This document shows, in pieces, positions 5,406 to 22,454 of a stretch of 50,903 nt of DNA. The notes below the pieces were generated by a model that saw only the letters and a program-made list of their open reading frames with translations, searched no databases and was not told where the DNA came from. Position 1 is the stretch's first letter. Each line of letters opens with the position of its first letter. Source of the stretch: a virus (taxonomy: Duplodnaviria; Caudoviricetes). The stretch covers positions 1-50,903 of IMG/VR virus record IMGVR_UViG_3300037845_000048, one strand, 5' to 3'. Both the position numbers and the translations under genes were made by a program.

Positions 5406-5894
5406 ATGAGCGAGCCGAACAGCCGCAACCGGACCGCCGACCGCGACTTCGACATCTGGCAGCGATACAGCGACGGCCAAACCCAGGAGCAAATCGCAGC
5501 CCATTACGACCTCAGCCAACCGCAAGTCAGCGCGATCATCGCCCGCATGCGCGACGACATCCCCATCGAAGAACGCCGCGCACGCCAACGCCGCCAACTC
5601 GCCGACCTCGACCACCTACGCCAAGCCGCACTCGCCCTCGCCGACGCCGACCCCATCCCCGCCTACTCCAACGGCCGACCCATCATCCTCGCCGACGGCC
5701 ACACCATCGCCGAAGACCACACCAGCCGCGTCCGCGCCATGGACCTCGTGATCAAACTCCAAGAACGCGAAGCCAAAGCCCTCGGCACCGACGCCGCCAC
5801 CAAAATCAACCTCGAAGCCGAACAGACCGGCGAACGCATCAAATCCCTCCTGCGCAGGATCGCCGGCCAGAGCACCACCGATGACGCAGATTGA
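5406..5894 (+). CDS. terS: terminase small subunit (N-terminal HTH)
   Basis: GGGAGG RBS, HTH 'QTQEQIAAHYDLSQPQVSAII', and overlap with terL. Confidence 0.75.
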   Translation: MSEPNSRNRTADRDFDIWQRYSDGQTQEQIAAHYDLSQPQVSAIIARMRDDIPIEERRARQRRQLADLDHLRQAALALADADPIPAYSNGRPIILADGHTIAEDHTSRVRAMDLVIKLQEREAKALGTDAATKINLEAEQTGERIKSLLRRIAGQSTTDDAD

Positions 5895-7383
5895 CCTCGG
5901 CGCAGCCCAAGCCGACATCGACGCACTCATCCGCACCGGCAACCTCAAAGCCCTGCGCGCCCTCGAAGCCGACCTTCAATCCGTCGCCGACCGCATCGAG
6001 GCCGGCCAGCGCCAGGAACGCTGGCAGCACGACCCGGCCGCGTGGGTCAGCGAGCGCCTGGGCGGCTTCGCGTGGTCCAAGCAGCGCGAGATCCTTGCCG
6101 CGGTGCGCGACCATCGGCGCACCGCGGTGCGCTCCGGGCACGGCGTCGGCAAGTCGCACACCGCCGCGCTGGTCGCGTGCTGGTGGCTGGACACCCACCC
6201 GCCGGGCTCGGCGTTCGTCGTGTCCACGGCGCCGACGTTCCCGCAGGTGCGCGCGATCCTGTGGCGCTACATCCGCCGACTGCACACCGCCGCCGAGCTG
6301 CCCGGGCGCGTCAACCAGACCGAATGGTTCATCGACGACGAGCTCGTCGGCTACGGGCGCAAGCCCGCCGACACCGACGAGTCCGCGTTCCAGGGCATCC
6401 ACGAACGCTACGTGCTGGTCCTGATCGACGAGGCGTGCGGCATCCCCGAACAGCTGTGGGTCGCGGCGGACTCCCTCACCACGAACGTGGACTGCCGGAT
6501 GCTCGCGATCGGCAACCCCGACAACCCCGCATCGCACTTCCGCAAGGTGTGCGCCCCCGGCTCCGGCTGGCACACGATCGGGATCTCCGCGTTCGACTCC
6601 CCGAACCTGTCCGGCGAGCAGGTGCCCAAGAAGATGGCGCTCAGCCTCGTATCGCGCGAATGGGTGGAGGAGAAGCGCGACGAGTGGGGCGAGGACAACC
6701 CCCTGTATCGCTCCAAGGTCCTCGGCGAGTTCTCCGTCGACCACCCCAATCAGGTGGTGCGCCAGTCGGACGTGGCCGCGTGCCGACTGCCGGCCGAGAC
6801 CGCGCCGGCGGGGAAGGATCTGCTGCCGGTCGAGCTCGGCGTGGACGTCGGGGGCGGCGGCGACGAGACGGTGATCCGGGAGCGGCGCGGCCGGGTCGCC
6901 GGGCGGGAGTGGCGGGCGCGCACGGACCGGCCGGAGGCGATCGCGCCGTTGGTGCTTCAGGCGATCCGGGAGACCGGCGCGTCCGCGGTGAAGGTGGACA
7001 GCATCGGCATCGGGTTCGGGGTGATCGGCGAGCTGCGCAACATGGGCGCGGAGCTGCACCGGGCGCATGTGCAGGCGGTGAACGTCGCGGAGAAGCCGCA
7101 GGACCCGGACAAGTATGTGAACCTGCGCGCGGAGCTGTGGTGGGAGATCGGGCGCGGCCTGTCGGAGCGGGGAGGGTGGGATCTGTCGGGGATGGAGAAT
7201 GCGGATGTGACGGTCGCGCAGTTGCTGGAGCCGCGGTGGGAGATCGATGCGCAGGGGCGTATCAAGGTCGAGCCGAAGGCGGAGGTGATCAAGCGGTTGG
7301 GGCGCTCGCCGGACAACGCCGACGCCCTTCTTCTAGCTTTCTACGTGGGTCGTCGTCCGGGTTACCGTTCGTTCCAGCGTTGA
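5881..7383 (+). CDS. terL: terminase large subunit
   Basis: Walker A 'SGHGVGKS', Walker B 'VLIDEA', 'IGNP', and nuclease motifs 'LGVDVG' and 'SPDNADAL'. Confidence 0.95.
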   Translation: MTQIDLGAAQADIDALIRTGNLKALRALEADLQSVADRIEAGQRQERWQHDPAAWVSERLGGFAWSKQREILAAVRDHRRTAVRSGHGVGKSHTAALVACWWLDTHPPGSAFVVSTAPTFPQVRAILWRYIRRLHTAAELPGRVNQTEWFIDDELVGYGRKPADTDESAFQGIHERYVLVLIDEACGIPEQLWVAADSLTTNVDCRMLAIGNPDNPASHFRKVCAPGSGWHTIGISAFDSPNLSGEQVPKKMALSLVSREWVEEKRDEWGEDNPLYRSKVLGEFSVDHPNQVVRQSDVAACRLPAETAPAGKDLLPVELGVDVGGGGDETVIRERRGRVAGREWRARTDRPEAIAPLVLQAIRETGASAVKVDSIGIGFGVIGELRNMGAELHRAHVQAVNVAEKPQDPDKYVNLRAELWWEIGRGLSERGGWDLSGMENADVTVAQLLEPRWEIDAQGRIKVEPKAEVIKRLGRSPDNADALLLAFYVGRRPGYRSFQR

Positions 7384-9745: not shown

Positions 9746-10171
9746 TCAGGCGGCGAGTGCGAGGGGGGCGGTGGTGCGGGTGTCGAGCATGGTGGCGGCC
9801 ACGTTATGCACGCAGTGCCCGGTGTAGGTGTAGCCCTTGCAGGTGCACGAGCCCTTCAGGGTGTCCACGACGTACCCGTCCCGGCCGCTGCTCGATACCG
9901 CCAGGTACCGCCAGGCGTCCAGCGGGATCAGGCCGCCGAGTTCGACGATCTCCTCGGCCTTGGCCTGCGCGGTCTTGGCGTCGGTGAACGCGGCGAGCTG
10001 CGCCTGCACGGTGCGGCGGGTGAGGGCGATGCGGTGGCGCAGGCTGTCGGTGTCGATGACCCACCGGCCGCCGGCCTTGACGGCGGAGACTGCGCCGATC
10101 CGGCACCAGGTGCGGATGGTGGCGGTGGTGACGCCTGCGTGGCGGGCGGCTTCGGCGGTGGTGGTGGTCAT
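9746..10171 (-). CDS. HTH (excisionase/MerR-like) plus SWIM zinc-finger protein
   Basis: N-terminal 'TTAEAARHAGVTTATIRTWCRIG...GGRWVID' and C-terminal 'CTCKG...CVH'. Confidence 0.7.
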   Translation of the reverse strand: MTTTTAEAARHAGVTTATIRTWCRIGAVSAVKAGGRWVIDTDSLRHRIALTRRTVQAQLAAFTDAKTAQAKAEEIVELGGLIPLDAWRYLAVSSSGRDGYVVDTLKGSCTCKGYTYTGHCVHNVAATMLDTRTTAPLALAA

Positions 10172-15618: not shown

Positions 15619-15690
15619 GCGCCTCGACGGGACTCGAACCCGCGCCTCTCCCCTCGAACGGGGAGCGCCCTGCCATTAGGCCACGAGACT
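15619..15690 (-). tRNA. tRNA-like gene or pseudo-tRNA with atypical anticodon loop
   Basis: - strand: acceptor GTCTCG/CGAGGC, D-arm GCCTAATGGCAGGGC, anticodon stem CTCCC/GGGAG with 8-nt loop CGTTCGAG, T-arm GCGGG-TTCGAGT-CCCGT. No encoded CCA. Confidence 0.65.
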
Positions 15691-15786
15691 GGGCCGCATG
15701 CACGCTGTCGGCCGAAACGGGAAATGTCCCTCAGCGGCTGCCTGCCGTGACTGCCACGGTAGCAGCGGCGGTGTCAGCGCGGGACG

Positions 15787-16326
15787 CTACCCTGCGCGCT
15801 CCTCCAGCTCCCCGAGACGCCGCTTGAGCTCCGCGATCTCCTCTTCCGTGCGCTCCCCGCGCTCCATCACCGCGTCCAGCGCCTTCTCCGTGCGGCGCTG
15901 GCGCCCGGCGAGGCGGCGGTTGATCTCCATCTGCTCCGCGAACCCCCGCGCGACCACCTCGAACGCCTTGCGCACCTCCGGGTCGGCGTCGGACAGGTCC
16001 ACGTTCGTGGCCTTCGAGTACGCCATCTCCAATTGCGCCCCGGCGCGGCGCCCATGGGTGTGTGCGAGGCGCAGCTGCCCGTTCACGTCCACGACCCGGT
16101 AGCCCTCGTTGCGCACCCCCTCGATCGCGCGCTTGTCCTTCTCCTCGTGTTCTTCGGCCGCGCGCCGCATGGCGGTGATCATCGCGGAGCGGTGGCGCAC
16201 CGGGTCGAGGCCGAGGGCGTCGGCCATCGCCTGGTAGGTCACGATCCCGCCGACGGGGGTGCCCTTGAGCAGCCGGTAGAGGACCTTCCATCGCGGTTCG
16301 TCGCCAAGCGGTTCGAACGGGCTCAC
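15787..16326 (-). CDS. wHTH-like plus coiled-coil accessory protein coupled to the RAMP-like gene
   Basis: GTGA overlap with the stop at 16323. 'VTYQAMADALGLD...VRNEGYRVV' is wHTH-like; the C-terminus is a coiled coil. Confidence 0.7.
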   Translation of the reverse strand: MSPFEPLGDEPRWKVLYRLLKGTPVGGIVTYQAMADALGLDPVRHRSAMITAMRRAAEEHEEKDKRAIEGVRNEGYRVVDVNGQLRLAHTHGRRAGAQLEMAYSKATNVDLSDADPEVRKAFEVVARGFAEQMEINRRLAGRQRRTEKALDAVMERGERTEEEIAELKRRLGELEERAG

Positions 16327-16928
16327 GACACGTCCTTGACGACGGTCAGCGTGCCCTCGAAGCGCCCGTAGCGCGGGCGCCAGTCCCCGAGGCCGATGAG
16401 GCGCCCGGCGATGTCCACGAGCTGCGTGAGGTCGTCGTAGTCGAGGACTTCTGTGTCGAGGTAGAGCATCGCGGAAGTTCGCCACGAGTTGTCGGAGTTC
16501 TTGGGATCAACCGGAAACTTCGGCCGGGTGCGGATGATGCGCTGCTGTCCGACTTTCGCGGAGGCCTGGAGCATGAAGTTGCCGTCGCGCCACAGCTCGT
16601 CGGGTTCGCGGGGGCCTTTGTAGGCGAGGGGGTTCTCGTCGGTGGTGATGATGACGCCGGAGGTGACTTTGACGCCGAGTTTGCGTTTGCGGCCTGCGTC
16701 GACGAGGCAGCGGAAGATGTTGTCGGCGGGGATGTAGGGGCCGACGGGGCCGTTGTAGAGGCCGCCGAGGAATTCGAGGCGGGCGAGTTCGAGGTAGTCG
16801 TCTTCGGATTTGCTGCGTTTGGCGCTGACTTTCTTCATGGCGCGGGCGAGTTCGTCGAGGGGGTTGGAGAGTCGGGCGTTGTGCATGAGGAGTGGTGCGG
16901 TGCCGGTGATGTCGAGTTTGAGGTCCAT
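16323..16928 (-). CDS. stand-alone Cas7/RAMP-like RNA-binding protein (Vipr-like)
   Basis: 201 aa from ATG 16928 (ACAGGACGG RBS). Motifs 'ITGTAPLLMHN', 'PYIPADNIFRCLVDAG', 'RTRPKF..W' and the G-rich loop 'IGLGDWRPRYGRF' occur in RAMP order. Confidence 0.75.
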   Translation of the reverse strand: MDLKLDITGTAPLLMHNARLSNPLDELARAMKKVSAKRSKSEDDYLELARLEFLGGLYNGPVGPYIPADNIFRCLVDAGRKRKLGVKVTSGVIITTDENPLAYKGPREPDELWRDGNFMLQASAKVGQQRIIRTRPKFPVDPKNSDNSWRTSAMLYLDTEVLDYDDLTQLVDIAGRLIGLGDWRPRYGRFEGTLTVVKDVS

Positions 16929-16950
16929 CGGGTTCCGTCCTGTAGTGGTG

Positions 16951-17616
16951 ACCATGCCTAGGCCTGCCGGGCCTGGACCTGCCATGCCGAGTCACGCCCG
17001 GCAGAGCCCTGCGGAGCCGAGGGCTGCCCTGCCATGCACGGTCGAGCCATGCGCAGCCCTGCGTGCGTGTCCGGGATTCGGACCCGGATATATGCCGTCC
17101 GCGCTGGTGGAACCCATGCCGTGCCCTGCCGGGCGCTGACTCGCCGCGACACGCCGCGCGTTGCCTTGACCCGCCTAGCGTGGCCAAGTCCCGCCAGGCC
17201 ATGCGTTGCCCCGACATGCCGGGACGCGCCTCGCCGGGAGGAACACGCACGTGGTCACGCGCGCACTCCACTCGAAGAGGAACCCAAGCCGGGCCTAGAC
17301 CTGCCCTGACAAGCCATGCCGCGTCCTGCCGTGCCCTGCGTGTGTGCCGGGGACTCGGACCCCGGGGTATGCCGTCCACACGGTGAAACCCAAGCCCTGC
17401 AATGCCCGACCAAGCCCAGCCGTTGCCACGCCGCGCCATGGCTTGCCCGGCCGGGACTCGCCCCGCCCAGAGACCCGTGCGCGGACCACGCCGCACGGGA
17501 ATCACCCGAAGGGGAACCAAGCCGAAGCCAAGCCGGGCCTCGCGGAGCCTAGACCGGCCTCGCCATGCCCCGGCTCGCGCTGCCCGGCGCTGCCCTGCAT
17601 CGCATAGCCGCGCCAC
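16951..17616 (-). ncRNA. array of five pentamer-periodic (NN-GGC) tracts with structured spacers; putative guide-RNA array
   Basis: Tracts 16951-17060 (22 units), 17113-17237 (25), 17283-17337 (11), 17389-17469 (16) and 17516-17616 (20). + strand units are mostly GCCNN. Confidence 0.85.
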
Positions 17617-17635
17617 ACGCCGCCGCGTGTCATTA

Positions 17636-17665
17636 ACCATAGCACCACGCCAGTTCGCACGTGAA
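17636..17665 (-). promoter_or_regulatory. putative promoter for the array and RAMP operon
   Basis: TTCACG-18 nt-TATGGT with an extended TG (TGCTATGGT, 17644-17636). It is followed by the hairpin ACACGC-GGCG-GCGTGT. Confidence 0.55.
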
Positions 17666-17815
17666 ACCGCGCGATAAAACACTACGAAACCCACCTGTTG
17701 CCACCCGCGCAACACGCTGACCAGCCGCTACCGCCTGCCTAATCAGCGATGTACCCTCACCATCAGGCGCACTGACAATGCGCCATACTCAGCATCGAGG
17801 GGAGGCGGCGGTCCG

Positions 17816-18082
17816 ATGTCGGTCGGCACCATCACCCCCCCGCGCAACGCCGCCAGACCCCGGGACAGGTGGCGAAGCGCACGCACGGCACTCGACGCGG
17901 CGAGGCGTAGAGGTGCCACGGTGGTCGGCGCGGTGCGGCACCACAACTGGAGCCCCGCGCTGACCATCAGCGGACTCTCCTGCATCGACGCCGCGTTCTA
18001 CCAGCACGGGTGGTTCGCCGGACTCCTCGCCACCGGCATCAGCGCCCTGGTCTACGACTGGTCCCGCGAGCGCGGCGCATGA
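17816..18082 (+). CDS. small membrane protein preceding portal
   Basis: GGGGAGG RBS, two hydrophobic segments, ATGA overlap with portal. Confidence 0.6.
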   Translation: MSVGTITPPRNAARPRDRWRSARTALDAARRRGATVVGAVRHHNWSPALTISGLSCIDAAFYQHGWFAGLLATGISALVYDWSRERGA

Positions 18083-19575
18083 GCCTGATCGGCAAAGCCC
18101 TCGCCGTGCGCAACAAGGCCCCCATCCCCCTGGACAACGGTCGCGCCTACCGCCGCGGCGTCGCGTTCAACCTCGGCAACGGGCGCGCCGACGCCGAGAC
18201 CGCGATGCGCCAGTACGGCCTGTCCGGCACCATCTACGGGATCATCTCGCTGCTCGCCGAGACCGCCGCCACCCCGAAATGGCACCTGTACAAGAAGCAG
18301 CCCGTCGACGGGCGACGCAGGTACACCACCGCGGACAAGGGCACCGACCAGCGCATCGAAGTCGTGCAGCACGCGGCGATCCAGCTTTGGAACTCACCCA
18401 ATGCGTGGCACTCAAGGTTCGAATATGCGGAGGGTTGCCAGCAGCACGAGGAGCTGACCGGCGAGACCTTCTGGGTCCTGGACACGGACGCCGGATTCCC
18501 CACCAGCATGTGGTACGTACGCCCCGACCGCATGGAACCGGTCCCCGACCCCGACAACTTCCTCGTCGGCTGGATCTACCGAGGCCCCAACGGCGAGGAC
18601 GTCCCCCTGCGGGCCGACGAGGTCATCCTCGAGAAGCGCCCCAACCCCCTAGATCCGTACCGGGGTGCCGGGCCGGTCGCGTCGATCATGCCGAACATCC
18701 AGCAGCAGCGGTACGCCACCGAGTACCAGCGCAACCTCTTCTTGAACGGCGCGGACCCCGGCGGCGTGATCACCGTCCCCAACCGGCTCACCGAGCCACA
18801 GTTCGACGAGCTCGTGGACCGGTGGCGTGAGGCCCACCGCGGCGTCGCCCGCGCCGGACAGGTCGGCGTCCTGGAGGACGGCGCCACCTGGGCGCCCAAC
18901 GCCCACACCAACAAGGACATGGAGTACGGGCAGCTGCGCCTAGCCAACCGGGACGAGCTGCGCGAGGCGTGGCGCATCCACAAGGCCATGATGGGCACCA
19001 GCGACGACGTGAACCGCGCGAACTCGCAAACCGCGCAGGAAGTGTTCGTCGCGTGGCAGGTGCTGCCCCGCCTGAACCGGCGCCGCGACACCCTGAACAA
19101 CAAGCTGCTGCCGCTGTTCGGCAACGCCGACAAGACCGTCGAGTTCGACTACGAGGACCCCAGCCCCGAGAACGCCGAAACCGCGGCCCTCGAGCTGAAA
19201 GAAAAAGCGCAGGCCGCCCAGGCACTGGTCAACGCCGGATACGACCCCCACGACGTCCTCGAGACCGTCGGCCTGCCGGACATGGACGTCGTCGAGACCG
19301 CCACGCAGGCCCCGGCGCTACCCCCCGCGTGGGTACCGGCCGCGCCCCCCGCGCCCGAAACCGCACCCGCCGGCGCACCGGCCGTCCCGGCCGCGCGCGA
19401 ATCGATCAGCGTGTGGGCCAGCGCCCCCCCGATCCCGCAACTGCCCGCGGCCACGCAGGAACCCGAAGCCGAACCCGCACTGGACATCGCGCCGCTCGCC
19501 GCGTTCCTGCGCCACTCACTGAACGGCCGGATGAACGGCCACGCGATCAACGGAGACTCGGAGGCCCGTCGATGA
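18079..19575 (+). CDS. portal protein (HK97 family)
   Basis: 'LTGETFW', 'RPDRM', 'PLDPYRGAGP', 'FLNGADPGGVI', 'VLEDGATW...DMEY'. Confidence 0.9.
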   Translation: MSLIGKALAVRNKAPIPLDNGRAYRRGVAFNLGNGRADAETAMRQYGLSGTIYGIISLLAETAATPKWHLYKKQPVDGRRRYTTADKGTDQRIEVVQHAAIQLWNSPNAWHSRFEYAEGCQQHEELTGETFWVLDTDAGFPTSMWYVRPDRMEPVPDPDNFLVGWIYRGPNGEDVPLRADEVILEKRPNPLDPYRGAGPVASIMPNIQQQRYATEYQRNLFLNGADPGGVITVPNRLTEPQFDELVDRWREAHRGVARAGQVGVLEDGATWAPNAHTNKDMEYGQLRLANRDELREAWRIHKAMMGTSDDVNRANSQTAQEVFVAWQVLPRLNRRRDTLNNKLLPLFGNADKTVEFDYEDPSPENAETAALELKEKAQAAQALVNAGYDPHDVLETVGLPDMDVVETATQAPALPPAWVPAAPPAPETAPAGAPAVPAARESISVWASAPPIPQLPAATQEPEAEPALDIAPLAAFLRHSLNGRMNGHAINGDSEARR

Positions 19576-21020: not shown

Positions 21021-22454
21021 ATGGCCCCGACGATGAAAGTCCCGACCGACTCCGCCGGGATCATGGAACTGCTCAACGACGAGACCGCCCTCAAGGCCCG
21101 GTTCAGCCGGGAGGCCGTGGCCAACGGCGACACCAAGGAATTCCTGGACGCCTACGCCAAGATGTACCTGAAGAGCAACTCCGACACCGTCGACGACGTG
21201 CGCGAACAGGTCCAGTCCGTCATCTTCGACCTGGTGCGCGACAACGGCGCCAAACGCGGCCCCAAGCTCGGCGTGTCCATGGACAGCGGGCGCCCCCAGC
21301 TGAGCGTCGACGGCACCGCCCGCGTCTCGCGCGGCCGCGGCGCCGTCTACAACAAGACATCCGCCGGGGCGCAGCTGGAGCGGGCGTACAAGCCCGCGGA
21401 CCGGTTCAACTCCATGGGCGAGTACTGCAAGGCGATCTTCGAGCTGCGCTCCCCGTCCACCCGCGCGGACCGCGACGACATCATCCGCAAGCTCGACAAC
21501 GTGCGCACCTTCCAGAACTCCTTCGGCTCGGAGGAGCCGGGCGCCGGCGGGTTCCTCATCCCGGAGATCATGCGCTCCGAGCTGCTCCAGCTCGCGCTGG
21601 AGGAGTCGATCGTGCGCAACCGCGCGACCGTCATCCCCATGTCCACGCTGCGCGTCCCCATCCCCACCGTGGACGACACCAGCCACGTGAGCAGCGTGTT
21701 CGGCGGGATCGTGTTCTACTGGACCGAAGAGGCAGCCGCCCTCACCGAGTCCACCGCAACCTTCGGACGTGTCACCCTTGATGCCAAGAAGCTGACAGGA
21801 TTCTTCAAGGTCCCCGCCGAACTCCTCGACGACGCACCCGCGTTCGGCGCCTGGTTCGACGAGCGCGTCCCCGCCGGCCTCGCCTGGTTCGAAGACATCG
21901 CGTTCATGACCGAAACCGGCGCCGGAACCCCCGAAGGGTTCATCAACTCCCCCGCGTCCGTGTCCGTCACCAAGGAGACCGGGCAGTCCAGCGGCACCAT
22001 CGTCTGGGAAAACATCGTCAAGATGTACTCCCGCATGCTCCCCACCAGCCTGAAGAACGCCGTGTGGATCGCCGCCATCGACACCTTCCCCCAACTCGCC
22101 ACCATGGCCCTGTCGGTGGGCACCGGTGGCGGACCGGTGTGGATCGGCGGCTGGTCCCAGCCCGGCTCCGACCTGCCCCCCATGACGATCCTCGGCCGCC
22201 CGGTGATCTTCACCGAGAAGGTCCCGGCACTGGGCACCACCGGAGACATCAACTTCGTCGACCTCAGCTACTACCTCATCGGCGACCGCCAGCAAGTCCG
22301 AGTGGACTCCAGTGAGCATTTTTTGTTCGCCAATAACCAGGTCGCTTACCGTTTAATTTCCAGGGTTGATGGTAGGCCATGGATTCAGTCAGCCTTGACC
22401 CCCCACAACAATGGACCGAGTTTAAGCCCTTTTGTCCAGATTCAGACCCGCTAA
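21021..22454 (+). CDS. major capsid protein (HK97 fold)
   Basis: 'GGFLIPE', 'WTEEAAALTES..TFGRVTL.AKKL', 'TILGRPVIFTE', 'RVDGRP', and position after the protease. Confidence 0.93.
   Translation: MAPTMKVPTDSAGIMELLNDETALKARFSREAVANGDTKEFLDAYAKMYLKSNSDTVDDVREQVQSVIFDLVRDNGAKRGPKLGVSMDSGRPQLSVDGTARVSRGRGAVYNKTSAGAQLERAYKPADRFNSMGEYCKAIFELRSPSTRADRDDIIRKLDNVRTFQNSFGSEEPGAGGFLIPEIMRSELLQLALEESIVRNRATVIPMSTLRVPIPTVDDTSHVSSVFGGIVFYWTEEAAALTESTATFGRVTLDAKKLTGFFKVPAELLDDAPAFGAWFDERVPAGLAWFEDIAFMTETGAGTPEGFINSPASVSVTKETGQSSGTIVWENIVKMYSRMLPTSLKNAVWIAAIDTFPQLATMALSVGTGGGPVWIGGWSQPGSDLPPMTILGRPVIFTEKVPALGTTGDINFVDLSYYLIGDRQQVRVDSSEHFLFANNQVAYRLISRVDGRPWIQSALTPHNNGPSLSPFVQIQTR

Follow-up and report, generated by a model that had tools for sequence, protein, structure and literature searches.

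The Locus

The 50,903-base window analysed here, IMG/VR virus record IMGVR_UViG_3300037845_000048, is the complete genome of a phage of the Caudoviricetes, contained in one contig with a GC content of about 69% (0.689). Between the start codon of a minus strand gene at 16928 and the start of the portal gene at 18010 lies an intergenic region of 1.08 kb, in which five stretches of the plus strand read G[C]C-nn with a step of five bases, corresponding to nn-GGC on the minus strand. In minus strand order these five stretches are followed by a gene for a minimal Cas7-like protein and then by a second small gene. This arrangement is very probably a phage-encoded VIPR (Viral Interference Programmable Repeat) system which consists of five guide RNAs, called vrRNAs, and the genes vipr and vap.

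The available parts of three bioRxiv preprints from 2026 (10.64898/2026.04.26.720920, 10.64898/2026.04.26.720927, and 10.64898/2026.10.15.759431) describe VIPR as a CRISPR-like, RNA-guided DNA silencer with a noncontiguous code, and as a proposed ancestor of the CRISPR RAMPs. According to these texts the Vipr protein of about 200 amino acids polymerises on vrRNAs of alternating GGY and NN units, each of which takes up one protomer. Of the unit, GGY is buried and NN pairs with the DNA, exactly one target base being skipped between dinucleotides, and binding silences the transcription of rival phages, prophages, and satellites. The one-nucleotide skip rule is based on a pangenome search, competitive binding, and repression of GFP (10.64898/2026.04.26.720920) and is shown in two clades (10.64898/2026.04.26.720920; 10.64898/2026.04.26.720927). 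Natural targets are described as mostly coding, with the skipped bases overwhelmingly on wobble positions (10.64898/2026.04.26.720920). In a VIPR system the vrRNA genes are expected to be tandem YNNGG (GGY/NN) pentamers of 4 units or more, and the vrRNAs to occur as RNAs of roughly 100 nt which co-purify with Vipr.

Anatomy of the Guide Array

At positions 16951-17065 the plus strand consists of 23 pentamers in phase, G[C/A/T/G][C/G/A]-nn. A scan of both strands of the whole genome for in-phase runs of eight units, of whose 24 fixed bases 20 or more had to agree with GCC, yielded just five tracts, all on the plus strand between 16951 and 17614, and no such run was found on either strand elsewhere in the 50,903 bases. 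The pentamer periodicity at 16951-17636 is not due to chance. Over 88 units read on the minus strand, the last base of the fixed triplet is C in 85 and the first and the second base are G in 69 each. The canonical GGY triplet is present in 52 of the 88 units, which are arranged in tracts of 12 to 25. The other 36 units (CGC, GTC, TGC, GAC, and others) seldom adjoin one another, as both members are non-GGY in only 4 of 83 neighbouring pairs compared to about 14 expected at random. Canonical units thus make up one of every two or more, which explains the 10-nt period given by Tandem Repeats Finder. The rarity of adjacent non-GGY units may mark a degeneracy that is tolerated by the Vipr filament; internal repeat degeneracy is allowed for in the available text of the discovery preprint (10.64898/2026.04.26.720920).

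A sequence-only reading of this DNA had placed the tracts at 16951..17469 and had read them on the plus strand. Both points need correction, as a fifth tract at 17522-17636 lies outside this interval, the fourth reaches down to about 17385 via one 6-base unit, and the functional guide strand is the minus strand. In transcript order the array begins with vrRNA 1 (17522..17636, about 20-23 units), which is followed by vrRNA 2 (~17385..17474, about 18 units including one of 6 bases), vrRNA 3 (17283..17342, 12 units), vrRNA 4 (17113..17237, 25 units), and vrRNA 5 (16951..17065, 23 nn-GGC units), the 3' end of the last being located 22 nt before the vipr start codon. One 6-base unit at about 17415-17420 (GCCgtt on the plus strand) shifts the pentamer phase inside vrRNA 2, and another one at about 17527-17532 (GCCgaa on the plus strand) shifts it near the tail end of vrRNA 1; each of them could mark the boundary of a guide, belong to a staggered one, or be a bulge that is tolerated. 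Directly upstream of vrRNA 1 a candidate promoter on the minus strand (17638..17668; TTTCAC, 19 nt, TATGGT) was picked by eye, and a consensus promoter scan found no sigma-70-type site.

The Vipr Protein and Its Partner Gene

The product of vipr (16323..16928, minus strand) is a minimal Cas7-like RAMP of 201 amino acids. It matches phrog_4652 with an E-value of 2.6e-52, a family labelled 'unknown function', and no Pfam domain was found in it. A profile made from 28 family members retrieved one solved structure, PDB 36pp_D, deposited as 'SUSP1 Vipr protein', with an E-value of 1.1e-50, and the two proteins are also matched by single sequence comparison (E 1.9e-26). An AF2 model of the phage protein (pLDDT 92.8) yielded 46 Foldseek matches with E <= 0.001, headed by Csm3/Cas7 chains with an E-value of 5e-5 and a TM-score of about 0.5, and the best matching of these subunits come from type III and type VII CRISPR complexes.

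Alignment to SUSP1 Vipr pairs the residues H17, K33, R39, R138, D177, W178, and R179 of SUSP1 with H16, K32, R38, R135, D182, W183, and R184 of the phage protein, and in addition E71/M72 with D69/N70 and K82 with R80. H16, R135, and R184 do not vary among the 28 homologues, conservation of K32, D182, and W183 is at least 90%, and R38 lies outside the conserved columns. The residues by which SUSP1 Vipr contacts G1, G2, Y3, the target backbone, and the nontarget strand are conserved in this phage. The family comprises 776 proteins at E <= 0.001, none of them named, and the closest Vipr proteins in genomes are those of Streptomyces and other actinomycetes with 57-60% identity.

The vap candidate (15787..16326, minus strand; phrog_5926) encodes 179 amino acids, starts with a GTG that overlaps the vipr stop codon, and has a GC content at third codon positions (GC3) of 0.82. 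It is homologous over its full length to gp77 of the Gordonia phage MakoManhole, which is annotated as 'DNA binding protein' (31% identity, E 6e-18), and to gp33 of the Mycobacterium phage LittleE (31% identity, E 8e-23). Each of these genes directly follows vipr in its own genome, so the vipr-vap synteny is conserved. The AF2 model of the vap product (pLDDT 75.6) has an H-S-H-H-S-S topology, its N-terminal domain resembling a winged helix and its C-terminal part being a long helix. A Foldseek search with this model gave no match at E <= 0.001, and weak matches only to winged helices of the MarR, ArsR, and ScpB types (E 2e-3 to 5e-2), by which a winged-helix assignment is weakly suggested. The open reading frame (ORF) at 15731-16291 on the same strand was also considered for vap and rejected, being in the wrong frame with a GC3 of 0.46 and matching no family.

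Structured Tails of the Guides

In guide orientation the tracts end with ...GGC-WU-GGGUUCC and then run into hairpins. Tails with such hairpins are found in four of the five guides, vrRNA 5 having no clear one, and two types of them alternate. In type A, found behind vrRNA 2 and vrRNA 4, a stem of 5 bp is followed by 10-12 nt of linker (GACGGCAUA...), by a second stem of 5-6 bp, and by the 3' strand of the first stem, and the T-arm-like hairpin has a loop of 7 nt, UCCGA(A/G)U. This is the shape of the acceptor/T-arm half of a tRNA. In the tail of vrRNA 4 (17061..17112) an acceptor-like stem is joined by the linker GACGGCAUAUAU to the T-arm-like hairpin CCGGG-UCCGAAU-CCCGG, and in the tail of vrRNA 2 (17343..17384) the acceptor-like stem is GUGUG/CACAC, the linker GACGGCAUAC, and the hairpin CCGGGG-UCCGAGU-CCCCGG. 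The type B tails are plainer, with a small CUC-UUC-GAG hairpin and a 13-bp hairpin behind vrRNA 3 (17238..17282), and a small CCC-UUC-GGG hairpin and one of 8-10 bp behind vrRNA 1 (17475..17521).

All tracts collected from this and related loci were searched for a hairpin within 75 nt whose loop is U[UC]CRAN[UC] and whose stem has 4 bp or more. Such a T-arm-like hairpin lies 3' of 38 of 331 tracts, compared to 2 of 331 on the reverse complement. The matches cluster in actinobacterial relatives and mostly have the canonical T-loop GUUCGANUC. Minihelix tails with a GAYGGY linker occur in the window at 17061-17112 and 17343-17384, and in the loci L001, L002, L026, L035, L138-L147, and L210. In an alignment of 31 tails the outer stem, which was not a criterion for selection, is compensatory at all five pairs and 79% paired. 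Covariation over the whole structure, in which the T-stem pairs are partly guaranteed by selection, is 0.751 compared to 0.177 in shuffled alignments, none of 500 of which reach the observed value, and it does not exceed 0.28 when the structure is slid along the alignment.

Complete tRNAs are not what was found here. Within the window Rfam (E <= 1) gave no tRNA match in the array, its sole find being a tRNA at 15619-15690, and at E <= 0.1 it gave no tRNA or ribozyme in the Gordonia phage Trine, in MakoManhole, and in five further loci. The 'tRNA-???' and the 'tRNA-Ala' which ARAGORN reported in Trine and in L035, respectively, are tail minihelices and were rejected as tRNAs. It is tentatively suggested that the tail of the actinobacterial clade mimics the top half of a tRNA, with the acceptor stem stacked on the T-arm and the GAYGGY linker between, and that it might recruit host RNase P, RNase Z, or both, perhaps also T-loop modifying enzymes, to cut the multiguide transcript and to cap the 3' ends of the vrRNAs. 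If true, this would be a host-dependent 'tRNA punctuation' of guides, to be placed beside the published pseudoknot tails and hammerhead ribozymes. The word 'tRNA' is absent from the main text of the three VIPR preprints in the form available, and a literature search found no paper combining 'vrRNA' with 'tRNA-like'.

Relatives and Genomic Setting

IMG/VR was scanned with a pattern in which nothing but the GCC/G anchor positions is fixed. Matches were obtained in at least 135 viral loci, a few of which are overlapping pieces of one contig, and many have multitract arrays, the largest among the matches listed measuring 1.37 kb. Beside the array a Vipr homologue is encoded in at least 40 of these at least 135 loci (tblastn, E <= 1e-3), which is a lower bound since only 80 of the loci had 2-kb flanks. 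Arrays adjoin vipr also in the Gordonia phages Trine and MakoManhole and in the Mycobacterium phage LittleE. In two of these genomes GenBank coding sequences overlie vrRNA arrays or tails, namely, gene 40 of Trine (L002 1825-2628) and gene 35 of LittleE (L210 1554-1943), which are therefore probably not genes. The words 'Streptomyces', 'Gordonia', and 'actino' are absent from the main text of the discovery preprint (10.64898/2026.04.26.720920) in the form available. One anchor match of another kind was seen at positions 1996-2068 of locus L007, on a contig with 39% GC, where a perfect 10-nt tandem repeat, GTCggGCCat, occurs in seven copies; it looks like a plain tandem repeat rather than a VIPR array.

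In the DNA fetched for 11 viral contigs with a related large terminase (TerL; 55-84% identity), Vipr or arrays were found in none, so the cassette looks like an accessory module. The stretch is represented in two soil metagenomes, the second of which has contigs identical over the array. In run X3 some parts of the stretch beyond 17329-17619 lacked identical cover, and in run X1 the cover ends at 17298; no conclusion is drawn from either.

The genome encodes the large terminase at 5752-7380, the portal protein at 18010-19572, and the major capsid protein at 21021-22451. The nearest named phage is Streptomyces phage Dagobah, with a portal identity of 41% only. Terminase and portal genes are about 10.6 kb apart, and the interval is occupied mostly by minus strand ORFs and holds a helix-turn-helix/excisionase-like gene (9746-10171), the tRNA gene, and the VIPR cassette. 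The tRNA gene (15619-15690, minus strand; Rfam 44.7 bits) follows vap on that strand at a distance of 97 nt. It has an abnormal anticodon arm, with either a 5-bp stem and an 8-nt loop, CGUUCGAG, or a 6-bp stem and a 6-nt loop, and ARAGORN gives no anticodon for it. Two possibilities are that it decodes with an expanded loop and that it serves the VIPR transcript as a tRNA-shaped element for processing.

Composition of the Variable Dinucleotides

The sequence-only reading had proposed that the variable dinucleotides spell a gapped target which skips the wobble positions of codons, and much of what it reported on their composition has been borne out. All 22 dinucleotides that it listed for the tract 16951-17060 match the sequence, their GC content of 20/44 (21/46 with the next unit) is indeed low compared to 0.689 for the genome, and the peptide-like strings quoted for the tracts at 17113 and 17283 follow from the dinucleotide lists. 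For all 95 dinucleotides the GC content is 0.495, again compared to 0.689.

In the genes of this phage the GC content is 0.66, 0.49, and 0.92 at codon positions 1, 2, and 3, respectively. A codon score was calculated by summing log-odds relative to genomic dinucleotides, the better of the two strands being chosen for each guide. It amounts to +29.1 bits when NN is taken as codon positions 1-2, whereas among the models with position 3 the best one scores -29.3 bits. The observed score was reached by none of 2000 simulated sets drawn from genomic dinucleotides, by none of 2000 drawn from positions 2-3, and by 14% of those drawn from positions 1-2. The NN bases, with their low GC content and these codon scores, thus stay clear of the GC3 signal around them, in line with the prediction of the wobble-skip rule. 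Over 95 VIPR loci, NN GC is below that of the flanks in 91 and rises with flank GC with a slope of 0.54. This is the slope expected for codon positions 1-2.

The proposed gapped code, NN-x-NN-x with the gaps on codon position 3, is the part of that earlier reading which agrees with the published one-nucleotide skip rule and with the NN composition; a target was not found in the collections searched. Its further point, that such a code would be insensitive to synonymous escape, has a counterpart in the available text of the preprint on satellites, in which codon periodicity prevents mutational escape (10.64898/2026.10.15.759431). As the published mechanism of the VIPR family the code is supported; for this phage the support comes from homology and from NN composition, by which the code would probably apply here as well.

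Search for Targets

In all searches the plus strand NN order was used, which is the reverse complement of the guide, with both strands scanned and, unless other gaps are given, a skip of one nucleotide. Agreement with the sequence-only reading, which by eye had found no self-target in the window, was obtained on scanning the genome with the array masked at gaps 0-3 and 100 shuffles each, since the best matches comprised 50-75% of the NN positions, none reached an NN match of 80%, and none exceeded the shuffle maxima. Published guides likewise have no self-matches at 80% NN match according to the methods of 10.64898/2026.04.26.720920, as far as available. Across 185 loci (732,682 bases; gaps 0-3, 30 shuffles) all results were within the range of the shuffles except for vrRNA 4 at gap 1 in locus L139, where 31 of 50 bases matched compared to a shuffle maximum of 30; this is 62% and far below 80%. 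Nothing above the shuffles was found in 11 loci of TerL relatives (133,082 bases).

Larger collections were searched with parts of the guides. In 401 Streptomyces genomes a window of 13 NN from vrRNA 5 gave, with up to 3 mismatches, one match compared to none for the control. This match was rejected as a target because it extends to 31/46 only and lies in a frame without the GC3 bias of Streptomyces genes. Exact seeds of 9 NN gave in six scans of IMG/VR viral contigs one match for vrRNA 5, none for either of two windows of vrRNA 4, two for vrRNA 1, and one each for vrRNA 3 and vrRNA 2. In contigs of species-representative genomes 10 and 32 matches were obtained for two windows of vrRNA 5 and 7 for vrRNA 4, and in metagenome contigs of the JGI 50 for vrRNA 1. 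All seed matches extend at chance level, to 30/46 at most, and their counts are near a rough chance estimate. Many of the 50 metagenome matches (L211-L260) share flanks, so the seed falls by chance in one conserved element; the contigs have GC contents of 0.61-0.68, and the full guide matches at no more than 29/46. No target above background was obtained with the gapped pattern, in searches weaker than the published one: a seed needs nine perfect consecutive dinucleotides and spans part of a guide, and its sensitivity lies far below that of the nhmmer screen by which a host pangenome was examined in the published work.

Proposed Mechanism and Alternative Explanations

By homology to the systems of SUSP1 and P. 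fulva, each Vipr protomer would bind one 5-nt unit of the vrRNA, burying GGC and presenting the two variable bases. The resulting filament would pair its NN bases with double-stranded DNA, one target base being skipped between dinucleotides (NNxNNx), and on binding, a phage, prophage, or satellite in competition with this one would be transcriptionally silenced. Synonymous mutations would provide no escape where the skipped base is the third of a codon. Filament formation, the one-nucleotide skip in this clade, the silencing outcome, and the nature of the targets are all expected by analogy to the published systems.

Several observations weigh against this interpretation or parts of it. As many as 36 of 88 units are noncanonical, and CGC, GTC, GAC, and TGC units may be bound or presented differently from GGC. 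The tail folds are no more stable than shuffled sequences (z -0.9 to +1.6). Full-length scans at gaps 0-3 of the phage, of 733 kb of VIPR loci, and of 133 kb of TerL relatives showed no enrichment at gap 1 relative to gaps 0, 2, and 3 or to shuffled guides. In the collections searched no natural target emerged for any of the five guides, none at 80% NN match. As to transcription, one soil metatranscriptome library contains a 291-nt contig identical to 17329-17619, which covers most of vrRNA 1, vrRNA 2, and their tails; this is a hint only, as the contig is assembled, gives neither strand nor ends, and could stem from DNA carry-over. Finally, 5.5% of the sets simulated with uniform random NN attain the codon score observed, and a uniform composition is excluded only weakly.

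The last point belongs to an alternative which leaves the system a genuine VIPR and takes the low GC content of NN to have no codon phase. Promoters, repeat elements, decoy sites, or similar DNA that is noncoding or lower in GC would then be what the guides aim at, or the clade would skip a different number of bases. The fit of a uniform NN composition is almost as good, the target searches turned up no coding target, vrRNAs directed at REP elements and guide-tail junctions are described in the available text of 10.64898/2026.10.15.759431, and clades with another repeat consensus are reported in that of 10.64898/2026.04.26.720920, to which the 36 non-GGY units of the present array may be compared. 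This alternative is nevertheless considered unlikely: the residues of the skipped-base pocket and the GGY contacts are conserved, NN GC tracks flank GC over the 95 loci with the slope of 0.54, and the one-nucleotide rule has been shown for two clades in the published systems, as far as their text is available. Much more improbable is a role of the tracts as DNA, that is, as iterons, a packaging site, or a replication origin with a protein bound at GCC every 5 bp. The location would suit such a site, as the 1.08-kb divergent intergenic region upstream of the portal gene lies between the portal and the genes on the terminase side, and recurrences of GCC tend to be spaced 10 bp apart, close to a turn of the helix. 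This reading is opposed by the strict strand asymmetry, by the conserved 3' RNA structure with its compensatory changes, by the linkage of the tracts, in many unrelated phages and at varied genome positions, to a Cas7-like RNA-binding protein, by the lack of arrays and Vipr in the DNA fetched for all 11 TerL relatives, and by the contig from an RNA library over part of the array.

That the region encodes a repetitive protein, by a minus strand ORF of 402 codons (16507-17715) or by plus strand ORFs, is scarcely credible. Long frames are open on both strands, and they stay open because stops arise only from NN = 'ta'. A period of 5 is no multiple of 3, the ORF at 16507-17715 overlaps vipr in another frame and matches no family, and no ORF in 16992-17910 passes the filter of GC3 > 0.82 and a GC content at second positions (GC2) < 0.62 which is passed by known genes. 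The idea of doublet-decoding tRNAs which read a 3+2 code was dropped once the match to Vipr had appeared. A VIPR system with five guides remains the interpretation that is best in keeping with the protein, the array, and the tails.

Comparison with Known Systems

The locus changes no principle, the idea of the code being already in print. It demonstrates, though, that VIPR can be recognised from raw sequence alone, and it extends the family to an uncultivated soil actinophage of high GC content, offering five long guides of up to 25 units together with a different accessory protein. Its degenerate GGY units, alternating with canonical ones, bear on how strictly the anchor is read by Vipr, and its tRNA-like tail suggests a route of maturation via host tRNA enzymes.

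The closest described counterpart is the type II VIPR of the Escherichia phage SUSP1, which in the available text comprises Vipr, vap1, and four vrRNAs (PDB 36pp). Both systems are carried by phages and have a Vipr of about 200 amino acids with common residues for the GGY and skip-base contacts, vrRNAs made of GGY/NN pentamers which lie on the strand of the gene in flanking intergenic DNA and end in structured 3' tails, and a small accessory gene directly after vipr. There are differences as well. Identity of Vipr to that of SUSP1-family phages is 33% by tblastn, and between the vap of the present phage and the gene that follows vipr in wV8, a phage of the SUSP1 family, no similarity could be detected (E 0.13). 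All five guides are located upstream of vipr here, in contrast to one upstream and three downstream in SUSP1, and they reach 23-25 units compared to 9-16 in the published systems as far as described. The tails are T-arm minihelices or plain hairpins instead of the pseudoknot reported for SUSP1, and the host, unlike that of SUSP1, would be a high-GC actinomycete.

With the Cas7 and Csm3 proteins of class 1 CRISPR systems Vipr shares the RRM core, the thumb, and the G-loop, as well as the principle that one protomer covers an RNA segment of fixed length and that the thumb interrupts pairing. The period of VIPR is 5 nt with 3 bases buried, while that of Cas7/Csm3 is 6 nt with 1 base flipped, and the guides of the present locus are hard-coded genes rather than acquired spacers. 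The window contains no CRISPR repeats or CRISPR-type repeat array, no cas1 or cas2, and no nuclease partner, and the genes flanking vipr, when scanned, gave no match to a cas family. A structured element between guides, which could define cut sites, is likewise found in the vrRNA arrays interspersed with hammerhead ribozymes, which are types I and V of the seven types given in the available text of 10.64898/2026.04.26.720920, and in the tRNA punctuation of polycistronic RNAs. The element found here is an acceptor/T-arm mimic and not a hammerhead, and it would need host RNase P or Z.

VIPR loci of cultured actinophages are those of LittleE (gp34/gp33), MakoManhole (gp78/gp77), and Trine (gp41), where the proteins are annotated as hypothetical or 'DNA binding'. 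Their Vipr proteins are 51-53% identical to that of the present phage, vap is homologous in LittleE and MakoManhole, and nn-GGC arrays with T-arm minihelix tails are common to all of them. The arrays flank the operon on either side in LittleE and MakoManhole, lie downstream of it in Trine, and upstream in the present phage. The tail loop, UCCGA(A/G)U here, is UUCGANU in the cultured actinophage relatives, and the alternating type B tails are seen only here. As LittleE, Trine, and MakoManhole are cultured phages of model hosts and carry the same clade of VIPR, its mechanism can be tested at the bench.

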